From contig CALHPK010000001.1 of NCBI GenBank assembly GCA_938036315.1, positions 144,109-208,108 on the forward strand: 64,000 bases of DNA. The letters run 5' to 3'. The translations under genes and the position numbers were made by a program. Below are positions 4,830 to 64,000 of this stretch, in pieces. The DNA is from an uncultured bacterium (GTDB taxonomy: Bacteria; Calescibacteriota; Calescibacteriia; Calescibacteriales; Calescibacteriaceae). Positions within the stretch are counted from its first letter, which is position 1; each line of letters starts with the position of its first letter. The notes under the pieces were generated by a model. It did no database searches and was not told the origin of the DNA. It was given only the letters and a program-made list of their open reading frames with translations.

Positions 4830-6515
4830 ATGGAAAAGATAGGACAAATTCTTGAGAGGTTAGGAGTCTCTCCCGAGAAGATCAAAGAGGCTCTATCCAT
4901 ACAGATGGAGAAAGGGGGAAGACTGGGAGAGATACTTATTAGAATGGGAGTTATAAACGACAGCATACTTGCAGAAGCTCTATCAATACAGCTTAACCTA
5001 TCTCTAAAAAAAACAATATCGAAGGAAGAAGTCGCTGAGGATATGTCATCTCGTTTCCCATCACATGTAGTAAAAGAAAAGAAATTTGTAGTCCTAAAAA
5101 ACCCAAATTCCGATGTGGCAGCAGTAGCAGTTGCAGATCCAACGAAAATTGACATAATACTTGATCTTCAGAAAATTTACAAAAAAGCACTGAAAGTTTT
5201 CTGCGCTCCACAGAGCGAAATAGAAAGAATCATAAATGAGATATACGGATTTGGTGCAGGAATAGAGGTATCAAAAGAGGTCGAAAAGGCAGAAGAAATA
5301 TTTGCAGCAGAAATAGAGGAGACAACTAAAGATATTCTCGAAGAAAAAGGCGATGCTCCAATAATAAGGTTCGTTAACGCTTTATTCTTTCAGGCTGTCA
5401 GACAAACTGCTTCTGATATCCATATAGAACCTGCAGAAAAAGAAACATCTATACGTATGAGGATTGACGGTGTTTTACACGAAGTAATAAAGATCAGCAA
5501 GAACCTACACGAACCGATAGTCTCAAGAATAAAAGTAATGTCCAGACTCGACATAGCGGAAAGGAGAATTCCCCAGGATGGTAAAATAAAGCTCAAAGTG
5601 GCAGGGAAAGATATAGATGTTAGAGTATCTACTCTGCCAACGGTCTTCGGTGAAAGAGTTTCTCTGAGAATTCTTGATAGAACCGCAACTATTCTCAAAA
5701 TTGAAGAACTCGGAATGGAAGAAGATATTCAGGAGAAAATAAAGAAGTTAATCAGAAAAACCTATGGTATGATACTTATTACTGGGCCAACTGGTTCCGG
5801 TAAGACAACGACTCTGTACGCATGCCTTTCTGAAATAAACTCCCAAGAAATAAATATAATAACTATAGAAGATCCGATAGAATACCAGCTGAAGGGAATA
5901 AACCAAATTCAGGTGAATCCCAAGGTAGGTCTTACCTTCGCAACTGGTCTGAGATCTATCTTGAGACAGGATCCAGATGTTATAATGGTTGGAGAAATAA
6001 GAGATAGCGAAACAGCATCTATAGCAATCCACGCTGCACTAACTGGACACCTTGTCCTATCGACTTTACACACAAATGATGCCCCATCTGCAATAACAAG
6101 ACTTATTGACATGGGAATAGAACCATATCTTATATCCTCTGCAGTGTTCGCAACACTTTCCCAGAGATTGGTCAGAAAAATTTGCACAAACTGTATCTTC
6201 CCCTATGAACCAGACCCAAGAGAATTAGAGATACTGGGACTTGCCAGGGAACAACTCCCAGATGGAGTTCTATTCAGAGGTCGCGGTTGCAGAGATTGTC
6301 TAGGAACAGGTTTCAAAGGAAGAATAGGAATCTTCGAGCTCTTCCTTATAGATGATGAAATAAGGGAATTGATAAATGAAAAAGCTGATTCTATGAAGCT
6401 AAAAACAATCGGGATATCAAAGGGTATGAGAACACTTCGAGAGGATGGAATTCTCAAAGTAATAAAAGGTATAACAACCCCCCAAGAAGTAGCCAGAGTA
6501 ATTCAAGAAGATTAA
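4830..6515 (+). CDS. Type IV pilus / type II secretion ATPase, PilB/GspE family
   Basis: The N-terminal region looks like a T2SSE_N domain. Walker A is GPTGSGKTTTLYA, with Asp and His boxes present. A C-terminal CxxC...CxxC zinc finger is present (CTNC...CRDC). Confidence 0.85.
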   Translation: MEKIGQILERLGVSPEKIKEALSIQMEKGGRLGEILIRMGVINDSILAEALSIQLNLSLKKTISKEEVAEDMSSRFPSHVVKEKKFVVLKNPNSDVAAVAVADPTKIDIILDLQKIYKKALKVFCAPQSEIERIINEIYGFGAGIEVSKEVEKAEEIFAAEIEETTKDILEEKGDAPIIRFVNALFFQAVRQTASDIHIEPAEKETSIRMRIDGVLHEVIKISKNLHEPIVSRIKVMSRLDIAERRIPQDGKIKLKVAGKDIDVRVSTLPTVFGERVSLRILDRTATILKIEELGMEEDIQEKIKKLIRKTYGMILITGPTGSGKTTTLYACLSEINSQEINIITIEDPIEYQLKGINQIQVNPKVGLTFATGLRSILRQDPDVIMVGEIRDSETASIAIHAALTGHLVLSTLHTNDAPSAITRLIDMGIEPYLISSAVFATLSQRLVRKICTNCIFPYEPDPRELEILGLAREQLPDGVLFRGRGCRDCLGTGFKGRIGIFELFLIDDEIRELINEKADSMKLKTIGISKGMRTLREDGILKVIKGITTPQEVARVIQED

Positions 6516-12578: not shown

Positions 12579-13549
12579 ACGGGACCAAACTTCCTCACAA
12601 CTATACCCCTCAAACCAGATTTTATCCAAATCCTTCTGACAATCTCCAGGATTATAAAAAGCATCATCTGACTAGTTGATGGTTCCACCTTACCCGCACT
12701 ATATAGATGCAGAGCATCTAGACTTTTAAACATCTTCTCCACCCTGTTTTTATATGTATGCTTCTCCAGAACTTCTATCATCCCTGAACGTGCTATCCTT
12801 TCACGCTCCTCATCATTCCTAAGATAATAACTTATCTTCTCGAACATATCATCTTCTGATGAGAATACAACTAACTGCTCTCTACTAAAAAGGTCTTCCC
12901 TGCCGTCAAAATCCTTAGATAAAACCATAGAACCAGAACACATCCCTTCAAAAACCCTCATATTTAGGCCAAACCTTTTATTAAGATTCAGAACGATCTT
13001 TGCCGATGAATAAATCTTACCAATGTCTTGACAATTTGCCACGCCGAAAAAGAATTTCAATCCCATCCTCTCAAGTAGATCCCTCATCCTCAAACGCTCC
13101 TTGTCCAGAGAACCTACAAATGCTAAATCATAGATCTTCAGCTGTGCCTGTTGCTTATGAAATGGGGGATAACATGCGAGAGGCAACCACTCTACTTTTC
13201 TACCAGTATCAATAGATAACTTCTCCGCAAATATCTTTTGGGAACAGAAAACTATATCAAAGTATCTCGACATAATTTTATCCAACTTAAATGAAAAGGG
13301 GGTGTCTATAAACCAAAATATCGAAGGAGAAAGATCCGATGGGAAAGAATAATGTGAAGAATCATCAACACAGATATAGGCTGTATACCTACCTTTTATT
13401 TTATTTTTTATCCGATATGCCGAAAATGGATCGAAAAGATCGACGGTAAAGCCGAGCTCTTCAAGAGTTCGGTGGACATAATAACCTGTAGAGCACATCT
13501 GCCCAGAATAAAAAATCGCAACTTTACCTTTGTTCCTTGACATCGGCAT
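12566..13549 (-). CDS. CgeB-like glycosyltransferase-fold protein (spore-maturation CgeB family)
   Basis: The N-terminal and C-terminal layout resembles the CgeB/DUF3880 + GT1-like architecture. The call is by weak pattern similarity. Confidence 0.45.
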   Translation of the reverse strand: MPMSRNKGKVAIFYSGQMCSTGYYVHRTLEELGFTVDLFDPFSAYRIKNKIKGRYTAYICVDDSSHYSFPSDLSPSIFWFIDTPFSFKLDKIMSRYFDIVFCSQKIFAEKLSIDTGRKVEWLPLACYPPFHKQQAQLKIYDLAFVGSLDKERLRMRDLLERMGLKFFFGVANCQDIGKIYSSAKIVLNLNKRFGLNMRVFEGMCSGSMVLSKDFDGREDLFSREQLVVFSSEDDMFEKISYYLRNDEERERIARSGMIEVLEKHTYKNRVEKMFKSLDALHLYSAGKVEPSTSQMMLFIILEIVRRIWIKSGLRGIVVRKFGPVQLP

Positions 13550-13609
13550 TATATCTTTATTTACTACATCTGCCTACGATTACCCTTGATAGATTTCTAA
13601 TCTATTTAC

Positions 13610-14038
13610 CTATTTCTGCTCCTCGGTTTCCTGTTCCTTCTTTTCTTCCAGTGCCTTTTTGAACCTTTCCTTCAACTCTGGTATAATCTTCTCAGCAACT
13701 TCAGGAATAAGGTTTATCACTTTTTCCACTATCATAGATTGTGGTCTTCCCATGGAGTAGAAAAAAGCTTTGCCCTCATCACCTACGACAAGAATCCCTA
13801 CGGGCTCAACAGACAAAGCTCCCCCTGAAGCTCCAATTTCATTTTTATTCCTTGATCCAGCCATAAAACCTATTTTTATCTTTGAAAGGGTTATTATACT
13901 TGACCTCCCAAGTTGCACAGGTCTGCTTATTATTGTCTCAGATTTCACTATCTCCTTTATCTTATCAAATAGTGAATAGAGAATCTGCTCAAGCCCACTA
14001 CCTTCCTGCTGTAACAACTCCTTCTTTTCCTTCTCCAT
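13610..14038 (-). CDS. YtfJ/GerW-family (Spore_YtfJ-like) protein
   Basis: IISRPVQLGRSSIITLSKIKIGFMAGS....GASGGALSVEPVGILVVGDEG matches the YtfJ Gly-rich core, followed by an acidic/Lys-rich tail. Confidence 0.55.
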   Translation of the reverse strand: MEKEKKELLQQEGSGLEQILYSLFDKIKEIVKSETIISRPVQLGRSSIITLSKIKIGFMAGSRNKNEIGASGGALSVEPVGILVVGDEGKAFFYSMGRPQSMIVEKVINLIPEVAEKIIPELKERFKKALEEKKEQETEEQK

Positions 14039-14270
14039 ACCTTTAATTTAGTCGGAATAACCTCCTTTTTTTTATAATTTTATACTTACTTATGAGTATA
14101 CATACAGGAACTTTATCTTAAGAATTCACCTCAAGAAAATGAAAACTGAATAACTTGATAAACCATCAGATAGGAACTTCTCACACTGCAACTGAGAAAA
14201 CACAAAATTGAACAAAAATGATTAAATTTTACTTGATTAGAACGGATAGTAATAAAGATAAAAATTTACG

Positions 14271-14627
14271 ATGATCGATTTTAGTGTGATAAAGAAGTTC
14301 ATACTTGCTTTACTTCTTTTAAATTTCTTTTTGCCCAATAAGGTTTGCCTTAGTGAAGCGATCTCTCTAATTCCCAGCAAGTTGATCACTGAGCAAAACC
14401 ATAAATGCTGCAAGGGTGAAAAGGCAAAAAAAGAAAGTCCAGAAACTTTTAAGAAAGTTGCTCCTGATTGCTGCACCGGAAACTGCGCATGCACATCTCA
14501 ATTTTTAACTAAACTTGAAACCCCAAAAGTAAATCCCATAAGAATCTACTACATAGATTTTTCTGGACAAATATACACAAAAATTTTCTCAAGAGATATA
14601 TTTTACCCGCCTAAAATGTCAGCGTAA
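14271..14627 (+). CDS. Small secreted cysteine-rich protein (candidate periplasmic metal-binding protein)
   Basis: A signal peptide is followed by CC..(27)..CC.GNCAC (7 Cys in 45 aa). The gene sits directly upstream of cusB-like. Confidence 0.35.
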   Translation: MIDFSVIKKFILALLLLNFFLPNKVCLSEAISLIPSKLITEQNHKCCKGEKAKKESPETFKKVAPDCCTGNCACTSQFLTKLETPKVNPIRIYYIDFSGQIYTKIFSRDIFYPPKMSA

Positions 14628-14710
14628 GGCAAACTATACCTGACAGCCGAACTTTCAGCCTTACTTTAAAAACCTTAAAAACCTTACACCCAAAAAAGGA
14701 GGTTTTTAAA

Positions 14711-16183
14711 ATGGAAAGCACAAAAAACAGGAAAATTAAAAGTAAACAAGGCATACTTGTTATCTCGGCAGTTGCAATCTTGATCACACTCTTTATAGGT
14801 TATAGAATTCAGATCATTCACCAGATTACACATCTGATCCAACTATCGCATGGGCAAAAGGATAAAAAAGCACACGAACAAAAAAGCAAAGAAAAAAAAG
14901 AGTATTACTGCCCCATGCACCCGGAGGTCAGACAAAATAAACCAGGAAGATGTCCAAAATGTGGGATGTATCTCGTTCCAGCTACTCAGGAGCCTAGCAA
15001 GGAACAAGAATTAAAAGAACACGAACACAAGCAAAAACATCAATCTCTTTACCACTGCCCTATGCACCCCCAATATATCTCCGATAAGCCCGGAGAATGT
15101 CCAATATGCGGTATGAGATTGGTCAAGATTGATCAAACAGTAGAACCAGAACCTACCAGAACAAAATATCACACCGTCGAAGGTAGAGTTCCTATAAAGA
15201 TATCCCCTGAAAGACAGCAACTTATAGGTGTAAAATTTGCCTATGCCGAAAAAAGAAGACTCATAAAAACCCTAATTGTACCTGGATATGTTGATTTTGA
15301 TGAAAGAAGATTTGTTAGAGTTAATGCAAGGTTCGACGGATGGGTAGAAAAGCTTTATGTAAATTATACTGGAGCATTTGTGAAAAAGGGACAACCCCTT
15401 GCTGAATTATACAGTCCAGAAGTTGTTCTGGCGCAAGAAGAATATATAGTTGCCAAGAGAAATTCGGAAAGACTCACAGACTACGCTTTGCGCAAATTTA
15501 ATCTCCTGAACATCCCAGAATTTGAAATTAGAAAACTTGATGAAACTGAAATTGTAAGAAGAACCCTGCCAATTCGCTCCCCAGCCTCGGGTTTTGTCAT
15601 CGAAAAGAATGTAGTTGAAGGACAAAAAGTTTCAGCAGGCGATGACCTGTACAAATTGGCTGATCTATCCTACGTCTGGATTCACGGGAATGTATACGGA
15701 TACGAAGGTAAAGCAATAAAAATCGGACAAGATGTTAAAATAACCTCCCCATACAATCCAGAAAAATCCCTACCCGGTAAGATTAACTATATCTATCCAT
15801 ACCTTGATAAAGATACAAGGACAACCAGAATAAGAGTTGATGCTAAAAACAACGGAGAACTGAAACCTGGCATGTATGTAAACCTTGAAATAGATGTAGA
15901 TTATGGGATAAGACTTTCTATTCCTTCGTCTGCAGTACTGGAACTTGGAAGGACAAATTATGTTTTTGTTGATGCTGGAGATGGATACTTTGAACCTCGA
16001 GAGGTAAAACTCGGTATAAGAACTGATGACTACTATGAAGTTGTTGAAGGATTAAGCGATGGAGAAAAAGTCATCTCATCCGCAACATTTCTTATCGACT
16101 CAGAATCTGCTATGAGATATGCTATCGAACTTATGAAGAATGAGAAGGGAGGAGAAAAACAAATAAATGGACATAAACATTAA
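14711..16183 (+). CDS. cusB: Efflux RND periplasmic adaptor (CusB-like) with two N-terminal CPMHP heavy-metal-binding modules
   Basis: Two copies of Y(Y/H)CPMHP....KPG.CP.CGM.LV are followed by an HlyD_D23 / beta-barrel MFP core. Confidence 0.8.
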   Translation: MESTKNRKIKSKQGILVISAVAILITLFIGYRIQIIHQITHLIQLSHGQKDKKAHEQKSKEKKEYYCPMHPEVRQNKPGRCPKCGMYLVPATQEPSKEQELKEHEHKQKHQSLYHCPMHPQYISDKPGECPICGMRLVKIDQTVEPEPTRTKYHTVEGRVPIKISPERQQLIGVKFAYAEKRRLIKTLIVPGYVDFDERRFVRVNARFDGWVEKLYVNYTGAFVKKGQPLAELYSPEVVLAQEEYIVAKRNSERLTDYALRKFNLLNIPEFEIRKLDETEIVRRTLPIRSPASGFVIEKNVVEGQKVSAGDDLYKLADLSYVWIHGNVYGYEGKAIKIGQDVKITSPYNPEKSLPGKINYIYPYLDKDTRTTRIRVDAKNNGELKPGMYVNLEIDVDYGIRLSIPSSAVLELGRTNYVFVDAGDGYFEPREVKLGIRTDDYYEVVEGLSDGEKVISSATFLIDSESAMRYAIELMKNEKGGEKQINGHKH

Positions 16184-16189
16184 GCTGTC

Positions 16190-19100
16190 ATGATAGAAAA
16201 GATAATAGAATTCTGTGCAAAAAATAGGTTTCTTGTTCTTTTACTTATTTTGTTCTTAGTTTTATGGGCATACCGATCTTTGAAAAATATTCCATTAGAT
16301 GCCATTCCAGATTTATCTGAAACGCAGGTTATTATACTTGTGAGGTGGGATAGACCACCACAAATTATAGAAGCGCAAGTTACATATCCCATCATAACAG
16401 CTCTTCTGGGAGCGCCACGAGTCAAAGATATAAGAGGAATAACAGATTATGGATTCTCTTTCATCTATGTGATATTTGAAGAAGGAGTAGATATTTACTG
16501 GGCACGCTCCCGAATCATAGAATACCTATCAAATATAATTCCAAAACTACCAGAAGGTATACAGGTTGAACTGGGTCCAGATGCTACAGGACTTGGATGG
16601 GTCTTTATGTATGCCTTAAAAGACAGGAGTGGGAAGCATTCACTTGAAGAACTCCAAGCATTTCAGAAATGGCATCTAAAGTACATCTTGCAATCTGTTA
16701 AGGGAGTTGCAGAAGTTTCCTCAATAGGTGGATTCACCAAACAGTATCAAGTTATTCTAAATCCTCAGTTACTGCTATCATATGGAGTCTCAGCAGCAGA
16801 AGTTGTGAATGCAATTCAGAAATCAAACCAGGAACAGGGAGCAAGGATTATTGAAATGCAAGGAAGAGAATATATGGTCACTGCAAAAGGATATATAAGT
16901 TCTATAGAAGATATCAAAGAAATTGTTGTAAAGGTCAATTCTGATGGAATCCCCATAAAGATAAAGGATTTAGCAAATGTAAGGATCGGTCCAGACATAA
17001 GGCGCGGGATCGCAGACCTTGATGGCGAGGGAGAAGTCGTCGGCGGGATAGTTATTATGAGAACCGGTGAAAATGCCCTTGAAGTGATAAAGCGCGTAAA
17101 GGAAAAACTAAAAGAGGTAAGACTCCCAGATGGTGTCGAACTTGTCATAACCTATGACCGATCGGATCTTATCCTAAAAGCTATCGATACCCTAAAAAGA
17201 AAGCTCACAGAAGAGATGATCATTGTTTCTGCCGTGATCTTACTCTTCCTCCTACATATTCCCTCAGCAGTTGTTCCGATCGTAATCTTGCCAACAGCTG
17301 TTCTGCTCTCATTCATCCCTATGTACTACCTCCGCATAACTTCAAACATCATGTCCCTCGGTGGGATAGCTCTATCAATAGGCGCTATGGTCGACTCAGC
17401 TTTGGCGATAATTGAAAACTCTCACAAAAGATTAGCTCCCCTATGGCGAGATGGTAGAAACACCCTTAAAGATTATGAAAGCATCCTTATAGGGGCAATA
17501 AAAGAGGTTGGAAGACCCGCATTCTTCACTCTTCTTGTTATTACAGTATCATTTCTTCCAATCTTCGCTTTAGAATCAACCGAGGGCAAACTCTTCAAAC
17601 CCTTAGCTTTCACAAAGACATTCTCGATGCTCTTTGCATCCTTACTATCTATAACCTTAGTTCCCGCAGTAATTACTACACTCGTAAGACCATATCCACT
17701 CCCTGGCTTCAGAAAAATTTGGGATGAAGAGGAACATCCTATATCAAAATTTCTTCATAGAGTGTATACTAAAATTGTAAGGGTTGTACTGAAATACCCA
17801 AAAGCTGTTGTAACCTCCGCCGGAATCATATTCCTGGGGACCTTACCTTTACTACTCAAACTTGGAAGCGAATTTATGCCACCACTCAATGAAGGGAGCA
17901 TTCTTTACATGCCGACAACTCCTCCCGGCATCTCAGCAACCGAAGCGGGAAGGCTTCTACAGATTCAAGATAAGATCCTAAAAAGCTTTCCTGAAGTCCT
18001 GACAGTATTCGGCAAAGCAGGAAGAGCGGAAACATCTACTGACCCAGCCCCCTTATCTATGATGGAAACCGTAGTCACTCTAAAACCCCCACATGAGTGG
18101 AGAGAAAAAGATGTATGGTACCGGTTTTTACCAGAACCCCTGAAAAAGCCCCTGAGATTAATCTGGCCTGACAGAATCTCTTGGGAAGAACTCATAGAAC
18201 AGATGGATAAAGCTCTGCAAATACCCGGACAAGTAAACGCATGGACAATGCCAATTAAAACCAGAATTGATATGCTCACAACAGGAATAAGAACCCCTAT
18301 TGGAATCAAAATCTACGGATATGATCTTGATGAAATCGACAAGATAGGGCAGAAGATAGAATCCATCCTCAAGGATATCAGTCGGACCCGAAGTGTGTTT
18401 GCTGAAAAAATAGGTCAGGGATACTTCATAGACATAATCCCTAAAAGAGAAGAGATAGCAAGGTATGGACTTACCATTGAAGATATCCACAGAGAAATTC
18501 TTGCATCGATCGGAGGTGAAAATATAGCTTTCACAATTGAGGGTATGGAACGATTCCCGATAAATGTCAGATATCCTTATGACTACAGAAATTCTCCAGA
18601 AAAACTTAAGAATGTTTACATAAGAACATCACACGGATTTTTTGTTCCCCTCTCTCAGCTTGTGGATATTTCCATATCTACCGGACCATCAATGATAAGA
18701 AATGAGAACGGCAGATTAGTCAACTATGTTTATGTTGACATAGAAGGGAAAGACATAGGAGGATATGTTAGGGAGGCAAAAAGATTAATCAATGAAAGGC
18801 TCGAACTTCCACCGGGATACACTTTGGTATTTTCTGGACAATACGAATATATGGAGAGAGTAAAAGAAAAACTCAAATTTGTAGTTCCGTTGACGCTTTT
18901 CTCTGTTTTTCTTCTCCTTTACATCAATACAAGATCTTTCATAAAGACATCTATTGTTATGCTTGCGGTTCCGTTCTCACTTGTAGGTGCAGCTCTAATA
19001 CTTTACATTCTCGATTACAACGTTAGTATAGCTGTGTGGGTTGGAATCATAGCACTGCTTGGAGTTGATGCGGAGACCGGAGTATTTATGCTACTGTACC

Positions 19101-19396
19101 TTGATTTAGCATACGAAGAAATGAAAAAGAAAGGTAAATTGATAACAGAAGAAGATCTGAAACTTGCTGTGATTGAGGGCTCAGTAAAAAGGCTTCGCCC
19201 AAAACTTATGACAGTCGGAACAACATTCTTAGGGCTCTTACCTATTATGTGGGCACAAACACATGAATTAGGAGCAGATACAATGAAAAGAATTGTCGCA
19301 CCAATGATAGGAGGCATCTTTTCCTCGTTTGTAATGGAACTCGTTGTTTACCCAGCTATATATTTCCTATGGAAGAAAAGAAAACTCTCTGCTTGA
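16190..19396 (+). CDS. cusA: CusA/CzcA-family heavy-metal efflux RND permease
   Basis: 1068 aa, 12-TM RND topology with large periplasmic loops. The TM4 region resembles the Met-rich region seen in Cus-type pumps. Confidence 0.9.
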   Translation: MIEKIIEFCAKNRFLVLLLILFLVLWAYRSLKNIPLDAIPDLSETQVIILVRWDRPPQIIEAQVTYPIITALLGAPRVKDIRGITDYGFSFIYVIFEEGVDIYWARSRIIEYLSNIIPKLPEGIQVELGPDATGLGWVFMYALKDRSGKHSLEELQAFQKWHLKYILQSVKGVAEVSSIGGFTKQYQVILNPQLLLSYGVSAAEVVNAIQKSNQEQGARIIEMQGREYMVTAKGYISSIEDIKEIVVKVNSDGIPIKIKDLANVRIGPDIRRGIADLDGEGEVVGGIVIMRTGENALEVIKRVKEKLKEVRLPDGVELVITYDRSDLILKAIDTLKRKLTEEMIIVSAVILLFLLHIPSAVVPIVILPTAVLLSFIPMYYLRITSNIMSLGGIALSIGAMVDSALAIIENSHKRLAPLWRDGRNTLKDYESILIGAIKEVGRPAFFTLLVITVSFLPIFALESTEGKLFKPLAFTKTFSMLFASLLSITLVPAVITTLVRPYPLPGFRKIWDEEEHPISKFLHRVYTKIVRVVLKYPKAVVTSAGIIFLGTLPLLLKLGSEFMPPLNEGSILYMPTTPPGISATEAGRLLQIQDKILKSFPEVLTVFGKAGRAETSTDPAPLSMMETVVTLKPPHEWREKDVWYRFLPEPLKKPLRLIWPDRISWEELIEQMDKALQIPGQVNAWTMPIKTRIDMLTTGIRTPIGIKIYGYDLDEIDKIGQKIESILKDISRTRSVFAEKIGQGYFIDIIPKREEIARYGLTIEDIHREILASIGGENIAFTIEGMERFPINVRYPYDYRNSPEKLKNVYIRTSHGFFVPLSQLVDISISTGPSMIRNENGRLVNYVYVDIEGKDIGGYVREAKRLINERLELPPGYTLVFSGQYEYMERVKEKLKFVVPLTLFSVFLLLYINTRSFIKTSIVMLAVPFSLVGAALILYILDYNVSIAVWVGIIALLGVDAETGVFMLLYLDLAYEEMKKKGKLITEEDLKLAVIEGSVKRLRPKLMTVGTTFLGLLPIMWAQTHELGADTMKRIVAPMIGGIFSSFVMELVVYPAIYFLWKKRKLSA

Positions 19397-57692: not shown

Positions 57693-57830
57693 TTATAACT
57701 TCTCCCACTCAAAATTTGTGATATTCCTCCTTTTCTTCGAAAATTCCACCTCCACAAGATATATATATTTTTCTTTGTATTTCTTCCAATACTTTTTCTG
57801 CTTTATCTTCTCCAGTGCTATTACTCTCGC
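57693..57830 (-). pseudogene. Start-less 45-codon remnant of a gene 3' end, paralogous to the partial ORF at 63859-64000
   Basis: On the minus strand it reads ARVIALEKIKQKKYWKKYKEKYIYLVEVEFSKKRRNITNFEWEKL*, immediately preceded by in-frame TAA TGA and with no ATG. Its stop lies 6 nt before the cinA start, so the cinA RBS sits inside it. Confidence 0.4.
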
Positions 57831-58023: not shown

Positions 58024-61000
58024 TTAAAACACTTTTTTCTTTCTCTTTCGCAAAAGCAAGATCAAAGGCAAAGCAGAGATAAAGATAAGGTAGCCAAAAC
58101 CAGAAACTGAACAACCAAATTTTGAAGTAAGTTCTTGATCTTGATCTGAAGTGAATTCAGTTTGATCAGTTTGAGATGTGCCAAAGTACTGCGGAGCTCC
58201 ACCGCCACCGCCTCCACCACTTCCCGACAAAACTCTAACTGGAGTGCTTCTGTGTGTCCAGGTCCCATCTCCTAACTGCCCCCACGCATTCCACCCCCAG
58301 CACCAAAGTGAATTATCTGTCTTTACAGCACAGGTGTGTTCCCCTCCCAAAGAAACTTGTGAAACCCCTTGTGTTATCTGCACCGGGGTGTTTCTGTCTT
58401 GAGTTGTCCCATTCCCTAACTGTCCGAAGTAATTCTCCCCCCAGCACCACAGTGAACCATCTGTCTTTATCGCACAGGTGTGCCACCCTCCCAAAGAAAC
58501 TTGTGAAACCCCCGTTGCCATTATCTGCACTGGAGTGTTCTTGTTTTCATTTGTACCATCTCCTAACTGTCCGCGGTTATTACTCCCCCAGCACCAAAGA
58601 GAACCATCTGTCTTTACAGCACAGGTGTGAAAAGCCCCCAAAGAGACTTGTGAAACCCCCGTTGCCATTATCTGCACAGGAGTGTCCCTATAATATACAC
58701 CTGTCCCGTCTCCTAACTGTCCAGACCGATTATCCCCCCAGCACCAAAGTGAACCATCTGTCTTTACAGCACAGGTGTGCCACCACCCCAATGAAACTTG
58801 TGAAACACCCGTTGCCATTATCTGCACTGGAGTGTACCTGTTTGTCCAAGTCCCATCTCCTAACTGACCGAATTCATTCCACCCCCAGCACCAGAGAGAG
58901 TTATCTGTCTTTATCGCACAGGTGTGCCACCACCCCAATGAAACTTGTGAAACACCCGTTGCCATTATCTGCACTGGGGCGCTACTGGGTGCAGTTGTAC
59001 CATTCCCTAACTGCCCGTATTCATTCCTCCCCCAGCACCAGAGGGAGTTATCTGTCTTTACAGCACAGGTGTGATAACCCCCCGAAGAAATTTGTATAGC
59101 TCCCTCAAAGTATATTGATGAGGTGGTTGCTGATATTATATTTGAGTATGCTGTGTTTCCTGTTGAGTTGAAGGCATATACCCTGAAATAGTAGGTAGTT
59201 TTTTCTTGAAGTGATGTTATATATCCTTCTGTTGTGTTTGCTGAGAAAGTTTGTATTTGTGGATTTGAAAATAAAGAATCAGTTGAGACTTCGACAACAA
59301 ACCCTTGTTCGTTTGGAGAGTTATCCTGCCATCTTAATCCTACTGTATCAGCTGATACGAAGAAATAAGTGAGATTAGAAGGAGCAGAACAGGGCTCAAA
59401 CCCTTCGTCTATCCCTCCTGCGCAGTTATTATCAATTCCATCACATACTTCAGTCTGCCCCGGATTTATCGAAGAGTTTGAATCATCACAATCCCCAGGA
59501 GATAAAACAGCATATGTAGAGTTATCAGGATATGGATCAGTACAGGATACTTGAGAGCCCCCCACAGGATAATATCCATCAAAATCTGCATCCTTGTACC
59601 AAATAGTCCCAGGATTCAGATTAGCATTATTGTCATCACAATCTTCAGGAGATAAAACAGCATATGTAGAGTTCTCAGGATATGGATCAGTGCAGGATAC
59701 TTGAGAGCCCCCCTCAGGATAATATCCATCAAAATCTGCATCCTTGTACCAGATAGTCTCAGGATTCAGATTAGCATTATTGTCATCACAATCCCCAGGA
59801 GATAAAACAGCATATGTAGAGTTCTCAGGATATGGATCAGTGCAGGATACTTGAGAGCCCCCCACAGGATAATATCCATCAAAATCTGCATCCTTGTACC
59901 AGATAGTTCCCGGGTTTACATCCGGATTAAGGTCATCGCAATCTTCTGGCTTTGAAACAGATGTAAATCCTGCTGGCATAGTATTGGCACAGGTAGAAAC
60001 TGATGTCGTCCAAGTATCGGAATCTCGATCTTCCCAAAACCAAGTCTCTATATGCCCTGAGCAATCATTATCTTTCCCATTGTTGCAGTTCAGAGGAGCT
60101 CCAGGGTATATACTTGCTACACTATCGTCGCAATCCAAAAGTGTTATTGTTGTAAGGTTATATGGTGATGTTGGTCCACAAGCCACTTGCACCGCACCAT
60201 CTGTGTAACCATCAGAATCCGCATCTTTGTAGAATACCAATAATACCCCTTCATCTATTTCTCCATCGCAGTCGTTATCTATTCCATCACAAATTTCTGT
60301 TGCTCCCGGTTTTATGTTTGGATTGTTATCGTTACAATCACCAACCATTGCATACAAGACATATCCTTGTGGTTGCAAGCAGGATATCCGCGTTGTCCCA
60401 TCTGTGTAGCCATCAGAATCGCTGTCTTTGAACCATACTGTATTTGGATTTATCTCCGCTCTCTCATCATCACAATCTTGTGAATTTGAAACATAACCCT
60501 GTGGTTGCGTGCAAGCTTCTGTCACTGAACCAGGATTACCATAACCATCTGAATCTTTATCTTGATAAAACGTTAACTTCACACCTTCATCTATTTCTCC
60601 ATCGCAGTCATTATCTATTCCATCACAAACTTCTTCCTTTGGCACACACACTATCTCACCTTCCTTGTTTTCCTTCTTTATCTCTACCTTCTTCTCAAAA
60701 ACTGTCTCGGCTCCTTCGCTGTCTCTTACCACTACTCTTAATACATATTCCCCACCATCTGCAGTCTGAGGAACCTTTACAACCGCTGTCGCTCCATAAG
60801 GTGTTATCCAATCAAATTTCACTCCATCTTTCGTTATCTCCCAAGCAAACGTAACATCGTCTCCGTCCGGTTCATTCACTACCGCAGATGCTACAAATTC
60901 TCTCCCTATCCATATACCCCCTGTTGTACCTATCTTTATAACCCGTGGTGCTCTGTTCTCTTTCTTTACTTCAATCGTGGTTGAGACTGTGTCTTTGTTC

Positions 61001-63690
61001 CCTCCCGAATCCTGAGCTTGGAGCACCAAAAGCGCCGTCTTCGCACCTTGCGGAACTTGTATCTCAAACTCTTTCTCCGCTTTCCCTCTTTCCAAAATTA
61101 TAGAACCTGAATCAGAATATCCCCAATCCGTTACTGAAAGACTGTAATTTAAAAAACTTGAATCATCTGAAAACTCAACCTTTAATTTTGCTCTCCCCCC
61201 CGCTTTTGCTTGTCCTTTCTGGATTATCTTTATCAAGGGTGAGGCATCTTCTATTTCCAAAGTTATGTCAACCGAAGCAGTTGAACCTTTCTCCTTTGTC
61301 TGTATCTCTCTTTCTACTCTAACACCCTTGTAACTTGCATAAATTTTTACTTTTGTGTTAGGTGGTGCCTCGAGTTTGAACTGCCCCCCTGAATTTGTGT
61401 AGTCAACCTCTCCAAACTCCGTTTCTACCCTCACCCCTGGTATGTGATTCCCTCTTTTTGATTGAATAGTCCCTTGAACCCATGCAGGGCGAGTATCTAT
61501 CTCCTGCTCTGACCATACACACTCCGTCCCCTTTGCCTCGTATTCCTTCTCGTAAATCTCTTGCGTTGTAGATGTTTGGTATATAAACTTTACTTTGTAT
61601 CTGTATCTCCCTTCTTCTGATTTCTTCGCCCTTCCTCCTCGAACCTTAAAAAATCCATCTTCATCCGTAAAAACTGGAGACCTATCTCCAACTATGACTG
61701 ATACTCCCCTCAATCCTTTCCCTTCTTTATCTCTCACTTGCCCTTCTGCACATACCTCAACATATTCAAAGTTTGCACCCTGACAGGAAACTTGACTGTC
61801 CTCTGGCTTTACCCTGACAACTTCTGTTCTCCCCTCTGTTGAGCCATCCGGAAACTTTGCTATGTATGTGATTTTCACGTCCTCTGTTTGTGTAGGTCTT
61901 GGTATAAAAACTTCAAAATCCCCTGAAGATTTTGTTTTTGTGTTGTTCCCTCCAACGAAAACTTCTACCCCCTCTGCAGGTTGTGAATTTACAAACACCT
62001 TACATCCAACTTTCAAAGGAGAGAGATTTATTGAAAATTGACAGGTTTCAGCTGTTATATCTTTGTCAACATTTAAAGTTTTTTGTGCTTTGTAAGTTCT
62101 CCCGTCTTTTTCGGTAGAAATCGTAATAGTAATGTTTCCACCCCTTGAGATTAAACTGAAATTTCCAGATGAGTCAGTTTTTGTTGCCTTCCCTTCTGAT
62201 GATACAACATTTGCGTTCTGTATAGGATTACCTTCCTCATCCTTCACAAAGCATGAAACTGAAAACATTGAAGGCGGTGACAGAGTTGGACCTTCATAAC
62301 AACCTTCTTTCTTATCTCCAACTGAAAATTCCTTTACCCCTGAAATCTCTCCGTAGGTGCCATATATCCTTCCATTCCAAGCATAAATCCTGTCTGTCGC
62401 AAAAATCCTTATATTAGAATTAGAAGGAACATATAAGATATACTCGCCATTTTCGTCAGAAATTGTGTATGTTGACCTATATCCTGAGCATATCCATTGA
62501 CCTACAATCTCACCGTATCTTCTCAACTCCGAAGCCGTTACATAAACTCCACTCACTGGTTTCCCATCCGCTCCTATTACCTTACCTTTTACACATACAT
62601 TCCTTGGCAATGTTGGACACCCAAAACTCCACCAAGATGTGTGAGTTAGACTCATCTCCCCGTATGCGACCTCATCTAAAATTCCGTCCCCGTCCGTGTC
62701 TTCTTTGAATATCACAACCTTTGCTTCTTTATGCCTTTTCCATATTCCATCCTCAGCATCATATGAATACAAAGGGATAGAATTTGCTCCCCTTTTGTAT
62801 GCCTCTAAAGCGTCTTTTTGTAAACTTTCTGGCAATCTCCGCATCACCATTACTGGATTTTCTGGAGATGCCACCTGCACATCTTTGCCACCCTGCTTAA
62901 AACTTAAAGAAGTCCATCCAAGTGCTTTAAGTTCAACTTCTTCAATTCCTGAAATCCCTAAGATCCCCTTTGCCTCTTCATCTTGTGCTTTAAAATCCCC
63001 TGGAAAGCTATTTAAATTTCTGTCAGGGTCTCCAACTGTTATTTCTACTGTGATTTCTCCTTCCTGCTGTTTTGTAAAGAAAGATTTTATCTCGTCCAAC
63101 ACAGAAGAAGGTGATGCTCTTCCTGTTACTATTCTTCCTGTTACTAATCTTCCTGTTACAAAGGCTTCTCCCGAATCTGTTCTCATTGTTTCTGTTCCAT
63201 CAGGGTTTTGAGTATATCTACCTGTTACTAATCTTCCTGTTACGAATCTTCCCGTTACAAAGTCTGCTTGAATATCCACATTTATTGCCCTGCCTGTTAT
63301 AATTCTACCTGTTATAATTCTACCTGTTATAATTCTACCTGTTATAAGTCTGCCTGTTACAAAATCAGAGCGTATTACTTTATGAGAAGGAGCAAAACCT
63401 TCTTGTTCGACAGTGATTTTTATATCTTTTCCTTCTTGGATTGGGACTTCTGCTGAAAATACCCCGAACTCATCTGTTTTGGTTTCTTGAACTTTGCCAG
63501 CAGATTCAATTTTTACATTTGCCGAGATCAGGGGCTTTCCTTCTATGGAGTCCTTTACTGTTCCTGAAACAATTATGGATGTAAGTTCCTTTTCCTCTGC
63601 TTCATTTTTTACTTTACATAAAGAAGCACAAGACGAAAGGAAGACAAAGACGAAAAAATAAAGAATCAATAAACGTAGAATATTATTCAT
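58024..63690 (-). CDS. Giant (1888 aa) mosaic cell-surface lipoprotein: CarboxypepD_reg-like domains, (I/V)TGR pentapeptide repeats, Ig/PKD-like domains, MopE/Myxococcus-type Cys-rich repeats, FN3, 6-blade RCC1 propeller, poly-Gly linker, Cys-containing C-terminal sorting signal
   Basis: A single uninterrupted ORF with signal peptide and lipobox (FLSSC). Recognisable repeat signatures are CDGIDNDCDGEIDEG (x3), YKDADFDGYYPVGGSQVSCTDPYPENSTYAVLSPGDCDD (x3), HTCAVKTDNSLWCWG.N..GQLG.GT (x6) and an FN3 block (LRWQDN...YYFRVYAFNSTG). The C-terminus reads SGSGGGGGGGAPQYFG...FGCSVSGFG + hydrophobic helix + RKRKKKVF. Confidence 0.85.
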   Translation of the reverse strand: MNNILRLLILYFFVFVFLSSCASLCKVKNEAEEKELTSIIVSGTVKDSIEGKPLISANVKIESAGKVQETKTDEFGVFSAEVPIQEGKDIKITVEQEGFAPSHKVIRSDFVTGRLITGRIITGRIITGRIITGRAINVDIQADFVTGRFVTGRLVTGRYTQNPDGTETMRTDSGEAFVTGRLVTGRIVTGRASPSSVLDEIKSFFTKQQEGEITVEITVGDPDRNLNSFPGDFKAQDEEAKGILGISGIEEVELKALGWTSLSFKQGGKDVQVASPENPVMVMRRLPESLQKDALEAYKRGANSIPLYSYDAEDGIWKRHKEAKVVIFKEDTDGDGILDEVAYGEMSLTHTSWWSFGCPTLPRNVCVKGKVIGADGKPVSGVYVTASELRRYGEIVGQWICSGYRSTYTISDENGEYILYVPSNSNIRIFATDRIYAWNGRIYGTYGEISGVKEFSVGDKKEGCYEGPTLSPPSMFSVSCFVKDEEGNPIQNANVVSSEGKATKTDSSGNFSLISRGGNITITISTEKDGRTYKAQKTLNVDKDITAETCQFSINLSPLKVGCKVFVNSQPAEGVEVFVGGNNTKTKSSGDFEVFIPRPTQTEDVKITYIAKFPDGSTEGRTEVVRVKPEDSQVSCQGANFEYVEVCAEGQVRDKEGKGLRGVSVIVGDRSPVFTDEDGFFKVRGGRAKKSEEGRYRYKVKFIYQTSTTQEIYEKEYEAKGTECVWSEQEIDTRPAWVQGTIQSKRGNHIPGVRVETEFGEVDYTNSGGQFKLEAPPNTKVKIYASYKGVRVEREIQTKEKGSTASVDITLEIEDASPLIKIIQKGQAKAGGRAKLKVEFSDDSSFLNYSLSVTDWGYSDSGSIILERGKAEKEFEIQVPQGAKTALLVLQAQDSGGNKDTVSTTIEVKKENRAPRVIKIGTTGGIWIGREFVASAVVNEPDGDDVTFAWEITKDGVKFDWITPYGATAVVKVPQTADGGEYVLRVVVRDSEGAETVFEKKVEIKKENKEGEIVCVPKEEVCDGIDNDCDGEIDEGVKLTFYQDKDSDGYGNPGSVTEACTQPQGYVSNSQDCDDERAEINPNTVWFKDSDSDGYTDGTTRISCLQPQGYVLYAMVGDCNDNNPNIKPGATEICDGIDNDCDGEIDEGVLLVFYKDADSDGYTDGAVQVACGPTSPYNLTTITLLDCDDSVASIYPGAPLNCNNGKDNDCSGHIETWFWEDRDSDTWTTSVSTCANTMPAGFTSVSKPEDCDDLNPDVNPGTIWYKDADFDGYYPVGGSQVSCTDPYPENSTYAVLSPGDCDDNNANLNPETIWYKDADFDGYYPEGGSQVSCTDPYPENSTYAVLSPEDCDDNNANLNPGTIWYKDADFDGYYPVGGSQVSCTDPYPDNSTYAVLSPGDCDDSNSSINPGQTEVCDGIDNNCAGGIDEGFEPCSAPSNLTYFFVSADTVGLRWQDNSPNEQGFVVEVSTDSLFSNPQIQTFSANTTEGYITSLQEKTTYYFRVYAFNSTGNTAYSNIISATTSSIYFEGAIQISSGGYHTCAVKTDNSLWCWGRNEYGQLGNGTTAPSSAPVQIMATGVSQVSLGWWHTCAIKTDNSLWCWGWNEFGQLGDGTWTNRYTPVQIMATGVSQVSLGWWHTCAVKTDGSLWCWGDNRSGQLGDGTGVYYRDTPVQIMATGVSQVSLGAFHTCAVKTDGSLWCWGSNNRGQLGDGTNENKNTPVQIMATGVSQVSLGGWHTCAIKTDGSLWCWGENYFGQLGNGTTQDRNTPVQITQGVSQVSLGGEHTCAVKTDNSLWCWGWNAWGQLGDGTWTHRSTPVRVLSGSGGGGGGGAPQYFGTSQTDQTEFTSDQDQELTSKFGCSVSGFGYLIFISALPLILLLRKRKKKVF
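58260..59208 (-). repeat. Six tandem ~156-bp RCC1-blade coding repeats with high DNA-level identity
   Basis: Repeated TPVQIMATGVSQVSLG.WHTCA.KTD.SLWCWG.N..GQLGDGT blocks. The antisense ORF 58254-59099 is an artefact of this periodicity. Confidence 0.8.
59484..59935 (-). repeat. Three tandem 150-bp near-identical coding repeats (50-aa Cys/Asp-rich modules)
   Basis: Units start at 59485, 59635 and 59785 and differ by only a few nt. Each encodes WYKDADFDGYYP.GGSQVSCTDPYP.NSTYAVLSP.DCDD.N. Confidence 0.85.
63118..63360 (-). repeat. Coding tandem pentapeptide repeat (I/L/V)(I/V)TGR, including 15-bp perfect DNA tandem cctgttataattcta x3-4
   Basis: Protein reads FVTGRLITGRIITGRIITGRIITGRAI ... FVTGRFVTGRLVTGRY ... 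FVTGRLVTGRIVTGR. The DNA at 63293-63352 is a perfect 15-mer tandem. Confidence 0.8.
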
Positions 63691-63858: not shown

Positions 63859-64000
63859 CTATAACTTTTCCCATTCAAAATTTGTAATGTTTCTTTTTTC
63901 CTTTGAAAACTCAATCCCTATCAGGTAAATATTTTCGTATCTCCCTTTATATTTCTCCCAGTATCTCTTCTGCTTTATCTGTTCCAAAGCTCTTCCTTCC
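63859..64000 (-). CDS. C-terminal 46 codons of an unknown gene whose 5' part lies beyond the window edge
   Basis: Minus-strand frame reads ...EGRALEQIKQKRYWEKYKGRYENIYLIGIEFSKEKRNITNFEWEKL* and stays open to the window edge. About 75% nt identity to 57693-57830 with a frame-preserving 6-nt indel. Confidence 0.4.
   Translation of the reverse strand, partial: EGRALEQIKQKRYWEKYKGRYENIYLIGIEFSKEKRNITNFEWEKL

Follow-up and report, generated by a model that had tools for sequence, protein, structure and literature searches.

Cys-type C-terminal sorting signals have been tied to proteases of the CPBP/Rce1 type only in 2023-2025. They are so far on record for the Myxococcota, some Pseudomonadota, the Synergistales and the Thermococcales, and all four known signals of this type pair with CPBP proteases (Haft 2023, bioRxiv 10.1101/2023.06.07.544157). 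Experiments have shown that MrtX cleaves MYXO-CTERM and that this cleavage requires the Cys (Guo et al. 2025, PMC11980579). For lipidation of the Cys in MYXO-CTERM, Lgt is the leading candidate enzyme. Here we describe the C-terminal tail of P0001, a giant lipoprotein of 1888 residues encoded on the minus strand (58024..63690) of a 64,000-nucleotide stretch of DNA from an uncultured bacterium (contig CALHPK010000001.1), which we call the window. The tail is real, conserved and uncatalogued. As none of the catalogued sorting signals matches it, we take it as most likely that the tail is a new sorting tag specific to the lineage, and it looks closest in kind to MYXO-CTERM and Synerg-CTERM. By analogy with these systems it can be read as a Cys-type tripartite sorting signal that is probably cleaved by a CPBP/Rce1-type protease, a reading that we consider evenly poised between right and wrong.

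The gene for P0001 was taken from the listing of open reading frames (ORFs) and its translation, and its domains from Pfam; all its coordinates refer to the minus strand. The protein starts with a lipoprotein signal peptide (MNNILRLLILYFFVFVFLSSC; 63628..63690) whose lipobox is L-S-S-C with Cys21, and the translation puts the cut point between MNNILRLLILYFFVFVFLSS and this Cys. There follow five CarboxypepD_reg modules of the beta-sandwich type with a run of (V/I)TGR pentapeptide repeats, eight Cys/Asp-rich Cu-binding_MopE repeats, one fn3 domain, an RCC1 propeller, a Gly7 run with a linker, and the tail. The RCC1-like beta-propeller (residues 1529-1820; 58231..59106; PF25390, 2.9e-76) stands directly before the linker. 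It is six-bladed, with six stretches each of RCC1 and RCC1_2 in Pfam, and it can be recognized in the DNA as a 147-bp repeat array. The linker (58126..58227) is of low complexity and consists of SGSGGGGGGG, AP and the polar/acidic stretch QYFGTSQTDQTEFTSDQDQELT.

The tail itself, SKFGCSVSGFGYLIFISALPLILLLRKRKKKVF followed by the stop codon, occupies 58024..58125. It includes the motif F-G-C-S (58108..58119, the Cys codon being 58111..58113), continues with the spacer VSGFG and the hydrophobic helix YLIFISALPLILLL, which has a Pro at +15 from the Cys (58051..58107; hydropathy scan), and closes with the basic cluster RKRKKKVF and the stop (58024..58050), the predicted cytoplasmic end. A Kyte-Doolittle scan finds exactly two hydrophobic segments in P0001, the signal peptide and one that starts at residue 1858. 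Pfam has no match to the tail, and no other ORF of the window has an ending of this type.

An earlier note, made from the letters of this DNA alone, had proposed a tripartite sorting signal at this C-terminus, and the layout of motif, helix and basic cluster is borne out by the translation. Two of the details need correction. The poly-Gly spacer is there, but it does not adjoin the motif as had been described: the Gly7 run lies 22 residues upstream, outside 58024..58125, and is separated from the motif by the polar/acidic linker APQYFGTSQTDQTEFTSDQDQELTSK. Nor is the Cys placed immediately before the helix, as six small residues (SVSGFG) stand between them. The strictly hydrophobic stretch has 14 residues, or about 19-20 with part of the spacer. 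As a whole, the interpretation given in the note is partly supported.

The tail recurs in other proteins. A profile made from seven tails was run with HMMER against 1.84 billion protein representatives (E<=1e-3) and matched 40 proteins. In 34 of these, which are independent protein clusters with analogous endings, the match is at the extreme C-terminus, and the other six are artefacts of internal repeats. Further proteins with the same ending, which the note had expected, do exist and carry it on differing upstream domains. A search with the whole protein gave seven JGI metagenome proteins, and a metagenome scan gave 30 further tail loci. The scan relied on a chimeric alignment of all three tail types (a, b and c, defined below) and two patterns, one of them across an artificial junction, and returned type a loci only; the endings found with the whole protein are of types a or b. 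The pooled collection holds 63 distinct tails. Against 6,415 local ORFs, a tail hidden Markov model (HMM) separates true tails (at least 52.8 bits) from the next-best ORF (12.4 bits).

Three types of tail can be told apart. Type a reads KSYGCS[AV]GGV.SRFLIPASMLI..RKKRKKKK and type b reads TRYGCSSA.IVFYVLYLIFPAFILFALLKRRFFVRN, also written RYGCSSAN..LIFPAFILFALLKRR. Type c is the window tail, and among the 1.84 billion representatives it is found in one other protein cluster only, P0094. This protein (632 residues; from NCBI/ENA, on a contig of 198,998 bp) has a lipobox, two MopE repeats, fn3 and RCC1, and may belong to the same metagenome-assembled genome as the window; its identity to P0001 is about 93% in tail and linker, against 71% in the body. 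Common to the 63 tails is the motif [Y/F]-G-C-S, with Y/F at -2 in 63/63, G at -1 in 62/63, Cys in 60/63 and Ser at +1 in 63/63, an invariance that is partly due to the way of collecting, since the patterns of the search and of the metagenome scan (KSYGC in the scan) contained the motif. That the Cys sits in a conserved motif, as had been suggested from the single sequence, is nevertheless confirmed at each of the four positions in 60-63 of the 63 tails. Between Cys and helix there are 4-6 small residues (SVSGFG in the window, SAGG and SSAN in the others), and 27-37 residues follow the Cys. A helix Pro is kept in 57/63 tails, at +12 in type a and at +15 in types b and c. The last 14 residues hold 2-10 Lys/Arg, with at least three in every tail except that of the frameshifted P0097.

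How do these tails compare with catalogued signals? We used NCBIfam release 20.0 with its curated cutoffs (Heimdall-CTERM 24, Synerg-CTERM 22.5 and LPXTG_anchor 15.9 bits). No sorting-signal model reaches its cutoff on a, b or c tails, and the a and b tails have no NCBIfam match at all at E<=10. The best model for the window tail is Heimdall-CTERM (NF045529), at 13.7 bits with the whole protein, 19.5 with a 67-residue tail and 21.8 with a 33-residue tail. The match begins after the Cys (tail residues 8-31) and so covers the helix and the basic cluster only. The name of this model refers to Heimdall-group archaea, whereas the gene content of the window (MurJ, Mur ligases, CheD, HslU, ribosomal protein L1) is bacterial. 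LPXTG_anchor gives 11.4 bits (E 0.42), also on the helix and basic part of the window tail and below its cutoff. The GlyGly-CTERM, PEP-CTERM and PGF-CTERM models do not match even at E<=10. The general tripartite format is shared with the signals of rhombosortase (GlyGly-CTERM), exosortase (PEP-CTERM), archaeosortase (PGF-CTERM) and sortase (LPXTG), but the PEP, PGF and LPXTG motifs are missing here and G-G before the helix occurs in type a only. The NCBIfam models that come closest are those of Cys-type or generic CTERM signals, not those of LPXTG or PEP-CTERM, in line with the opinion of the note.

Among the Cys-type signals, MYXO-CTERM (TIGR03901), the signal of MrtX, has no match at E<=10 to the whole protein or to isolated a, b or c tails. 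The resemblance is in design: a tripartite tag with a G-C motif, small residues, a helix and a basic cluster; about 30 residues after the Cys; a disordered linker ahead; large adhesin-like surface proteins of a diderm as carriers; and several carriers per genome, as in the a/b lineage here. There are differences too. MYXO-CTERM is often GCGC, whereas the tails here have a single Cys. Its helices are free of Pro and charge, whereas here most have Pro and type a also has Arg. Its basic cluster is Arg-rich, that of the tails here Lys-rich, and the carriers described here have lipoprotein signal peptides. It is restricted to the Myxococcota, whereas the tails here are Calescibacteriota-like with Candidatus Calescibacterium as the nearest genomes, and it has a cognate myxosortase (the CPBP family MrtX/MrtC/MrtP), whereas neither the window nor about 355 kb of related DNA holds a CPBP gene.

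Synerg-CTERM (TIGR04564; MrtS, Synergistales) is the only Cys-type model to score: the c tail obtains 15.0 bits, below the cutoff, in an alignment that starts from the G-C. Shared features are the single Cys in a Ser/Gly-rich motif and a Pro within the Leu-rich stretch of the helix (ALPLILLL in the window). Synerg-CTERM, however, is shorter and lacks the spacer after the Cys, the a and b tails score nothing with it, and the phylum differs. JDVT-CTERM (MrtJ, Pseudomonadota) is similar in having a single Cys, a conserved helix-breaking residue within the transmembrane (TM) segment and few carriers per genome, as seems to be the case for the window type. Its D-P motif at +9 (counted from the Cys) and its neighbouring CPBP gene have no counterpart at the window tail, and its model does not match. 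CGP-CTERM of the archaeal Thermococcales has C-G-P where the tails here have C-S, and the window is bacterial. Finally, several of the features by which Haft recognizes tripartite signals in general were found here, namely a C-terminal motif, TM segment and basic cluster, carriers that differ upstream (though all share MopE modules) and several of them per genome. A further feature by which such signals are recognized is a dedicated sorting enzyme that follows the signal in its distribution over species.

We read the three tail types as diverged versions of one C-terminal module; the tests on this weak point of the case are mixed. On the positive side, a profile of b tails with their linker gives the window C-terminus as the best non-b ORF (E 0.0036; 6,415 ORFs). 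The two match over their full length, Cys against Cys and Pro against Pro, and the linker of P0001 aligns with the polyG-AP-x-x-F-G linker of b tails. With the same profile, type a tails occupy many ranks below the window tail. On the other side, an a-only HMM misses the b tails and a b-only HMM misses the a tails. What has been kept in spite of the drift in the rest of the helix, namely the motif, the spacing and the helix Pro, is a pattern typical of sorting signals and one that a plain anchor would hardly be expected to show.

The modules that stand ahead of the tail differ and comprise four kinds of propeller or lectin module: a DUF5122 propeller in type a; RCC1, FG-GAP or LamG with DUF2341 in type b; and RCC1 in type c. 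The carriers are not wholly unrelated, as every one of them has MopE repeats, and in single-linkage clustering of their bodies the shared MopE and RCC1 repeats join everything. Over its first 1,240 residues P0001 shares 48% identity with the a-type P0011, from which it differs in both propeller and tail type, and across the RCC1 region it is about 49% identical to the b-type P0082. A lipobox is present in 16/16 carriers with an intact N-terminus. A 7.7-kb contig (L017) has a b-type and an a-type gene in tandem, and nine metagenome samples have 2-4 different tail-bearing contigs each. RCC1 homologues without a tail also exist; in Candidatus Calescibacterium sp. PSS.bin.4 they stop right after the propeller.

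All carriers are on low-G+C DNA related to Candidatus Calescibacterium, a genus within the phylum Candidatus Calescibacteriota, and the nearest named relatives of P0001 are in strain PSS.bin.4 of that genus (50-56% identity over segments). Between the tyrosyl-tRNA synthetase of the window and that of a 1.07-Mb JGI contig with a related tail-bearing gene, identity is 62%. We therefore assign the window, which has a G+C content of 38% and whose proteins are singletons from NCBI/ENA, to the Calescibacteriota or their immediate vicinity, in a lineage other than the Calescibacterium group with its 35% G+C. Members of the Calescamantes are uncultured heterotrophs of springs at about 80 degrees C, have been judged diderm and possess LspA (PMC4791363).

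How the signal might work can be outlined by adding to the architecture and recurrence seen in the sequences a set of biochemical steps, all of them drawn from the analogy with myxosortase. P0001 would be exported by the Sec route and lipidated at the Cys of the N-terminal lipobox. The C-terminal helix would then keep the protein in the inner membrane for a time, RKRKKK lying in the cytoplasm and [Y/F]-G-C-S at the outer face. The motif Cys would be modified, probably by lipidation, and an intramembrane endopeptidase would cut just after it, so that helix and basic tail are lost. By analogy with the four known Cys-type signals, the likeliest candidate would be a glutamic protease of the CPBP/Rce1 type. 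The giant adhesin-like protein would finally be released to the outer membrane or the cell surface. An outer-membrane lipoprotein with a helix in the inner membrane is topologically awkward, which would argue for removal of the tail.

Several observations weigh against cleavage of a Cys-type signal by a CPBP enzyme. No CPBP, rhomboid, exosortase or sortase gene is found in the 64-kb window, in agreement with the note, and the search that the note had recommended for such genes elsewhere was likewise negative in about 355 kb of related loci. In few-substrate systems the enzyme is often adjacent, and the neighbours of P0001 are CinA downstream and, upstream, a gene that ends in a PD-(D/E)XK (PDDEXK_9) domain; the window type of tail is on two protein clusters only. 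The gene table for Calescamantes-OS has no 'caax protease', the assembly being 63% complete; for the two co-assembled 'Pyropristinus' types the table gives it as present (PMC4791363). The likeness among the three tail types is limited to motif and linker, their homology is weak, and an HMM of a and b tails does not detect the window tail (E 2.5). All carriers form one modular family of MopE-plus-propeller paralogues, along with which the tail could have been inherited. The invariance of a tails is partly a matter of recent common origin, because the copies are very similar in DNA (in a codon comparison for which the motif was preset by the scan pattern). Three type a proteins (P0070, P0073 and P0092) have Tyr or His at the place of the motif Cys (KSYGYS, KSYGHS), which could reflect decay of the copies, errors in sequencing or variation that is tolerated.

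The enzyme search extended to all ORFs of the related loci with at least four predicted TM segments, of which seven were taken to Pfam. Some of these are PAP2, FtsK, FTR1, CitMHS or CstA; the rest match nothing in Pfam or NCBIfam. Two of the unmatched proteins deserve mention, one of 444 residues with about 10 TM segments (L002 18491..19825), 3 kb from the tail gene P0011, and one of 594 residues with about 9 TM segments (L004 23850..25634), about 5 kb downstream of an ORF of 1,555 residues. Neither recurs beside other tail genes (tblastn for the former, the ORF list for the latter). The multi-TM proteins of the window are EamA, an RND pump, DoxX, probable Nuo membrane subunits (a cluster assigned by size and TM count only), an SPFH-domain protein and MurJ. 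The lack of an enzyme nearby is what one would expect if the enzyme were a housekeeping one with many substrates (Haft 2023).

The most serious alternative, though we think it unlikely, is that the tail is a permanent, uncleaved membrane anchor. The protein would then either remain attached to the inner membrane on its periplasmic side or span the envelope, its N-terminal lipid sitting in the outer membrane and its C-terminal helix in the inner one. The conserved Cys would have a different function, for example in a disulfide bond or as a site of acylation that is not followed by cleavage. Much of what was just listed suits an anchor: no processing enzyme in the window or the related loci, the reported absence of 'caax protease' in Calescamantes-OS, a window type confined to one or two proteins, carriers that are all paralogues of one modular family, and HMMs of the three types that do not cross-detect. 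An anchor, however, needs hydrophobicity only, and here the four-residue motif, its distance from the C-terminus and the helix Pro persist while the helix diverges. Moreover, the tail has been swapped among four upstream domain types, and signals known to be cleaved have this format, in which a disordered linker leads into a Cys motif.

Improbable, in our estimate, is a true sorting signal that is served by an enzyme outside the CPBP family, whether of the rhomboid type, of the exosortase/archaeosortase type or wholly new. The Calescamantes-OS table without a CAAX protease would agree with this, as would the G-G before the helix in the type a spacer (CSAGGV), a faint echo of GlyGly-CTERM, and the fact that the top sub-threshold match, Heimdall-CTERM, spans the helix and basic part only. 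But b and c tails have no G-G, the GlyGly-CTERM, PEP-CTERM and PGF-CTERM models found nothing, and all known tripartite signals of the Cys type have a CPBP enzyme as partner; the incompleteness of the Calescamantes-OS assembly also lessens the force of its table.

We are similarly doubtful of a dual lipid anchoring, in which both the lipobox Cys and the Cys of [Y/F]-G-C-S would carry lipid and the helix would be removed by an enzyme not recognizable as CPBP, in a pathway that Calescibacteriota-like organisms would have of their own. It would fit the reported absence of 'caax protease' in Calescamantes-OS. If it were true, a new family of sorting enzymes would be paired with a new signal.

A chance hydrophobic C-terminus or a read-through/frameshift artefact with no specific function is very improbable: short TM-plus-basic ends do weakly match several unrelated CTERM models, but this explanation is contradicted by the recurrence in 34 clusters, by the conservation of the tail in P0094 (93% against 71% for the bodies) and by the clean split of HMM scores.

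Should the tail prove to be a further Cys-type sorting signal, the catalogue of such signals would be extended to a deep-branching phylum of uncultured hyperthermophiles, and the tail would serve as a marker for the cell-surface proteome, the large MopE-plus-propeller lipoproteins, of Calescibacteriota-like organisms. It would also offer a clean test of whether an invariant Cys always implies a CPBP enzyme, because the sole published gene table for the lineage lists no such enzyme under 'caax protease'. That the carriers have both an N-terminal lipobox and a C-terminal G-C bears further on which enzyme lipidates the C-terminal Cys.

Some minor observations concern P0001 and its surroundings. 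Near its N-terminus, three short 15-bp tandem-repeat arrays (63118..63359) encode (V/I)TGR(L/I) pentapeptides. At 59483..59907, a 150-bp unit present 2.8 times at 96% identity encodes near-identical MopE-type repeats (WYKDADFDGYYP...), the near-identity pointing to a recent internal duplication. The gene is flanked by an imperfect direct repeat of 138 bp with 72% identity (57694..57825 and 63860..63997). The copy at the end of the window is, on the minus strand, the 3' end of the upstream gene (...EQIKQKRYWEKYKGRYENIYLIGIEFSKEKRNITNFEWEKL and stop; PF08011 PDDEXK_9, 31.7 bits), and the copy downstream of P0001 is a remnant of the same gene ending with stop codons ahead of it.

In seven related loci, large propeller-lipoprotein genes are adjoined by convergent, multi-copy genes of about 300-335 residues with KEGLKEG-type repeats. 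Six of the seven loci are tail-bearing, and the RCC1 gene of the remaining one, L003, has no tail. The KEGLKEG-type genes are at L001 13314..14700; L002 5302..6279 and 15387..17265; L003 12343..13317; L015 13484..14491; L016 8680..9621 and 13420..14728; L047 8503..9480 and 13285..13632; and L048 3450..4367. Their only match is below threshold, to the YhgA/Rpn-like Transposase_31 (E 0.064). Carriers share an N-terminal module of about 500 residues that is 70-88% identical, and their C-termini differ. Together, the KEGLKEG-type neighbours and the shared module suggest mosaic surface proteins that are driven by recombination. The tail-less RCC1 homologues of the related loci are at L003 9761..12307 and L004 9863..12052, and the ORF of 1,555 residues in L004 belongs to a cluster of genes for large secreted proteins.

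Elsewhere in the window, 4830..6515 encodes a stand-alone secretion ATPase of the GspE/PilB type with an MshEN domain (T2SSE, 1.9e-142). No other type II secretion or pilus component was seen among the remaining window genes scanned, and the ATPase by itself does not point specifically to export by type II secretion. At 14711..19396, a CusB-like membrane-fusion protein with heavy-metal-binding domains is followed by an RND pump of 1068 residues. A near-identical copy of the pump, P0010, is on a 37-kb NCBI/ENA contig, which implies that a closely related second assembly exists.

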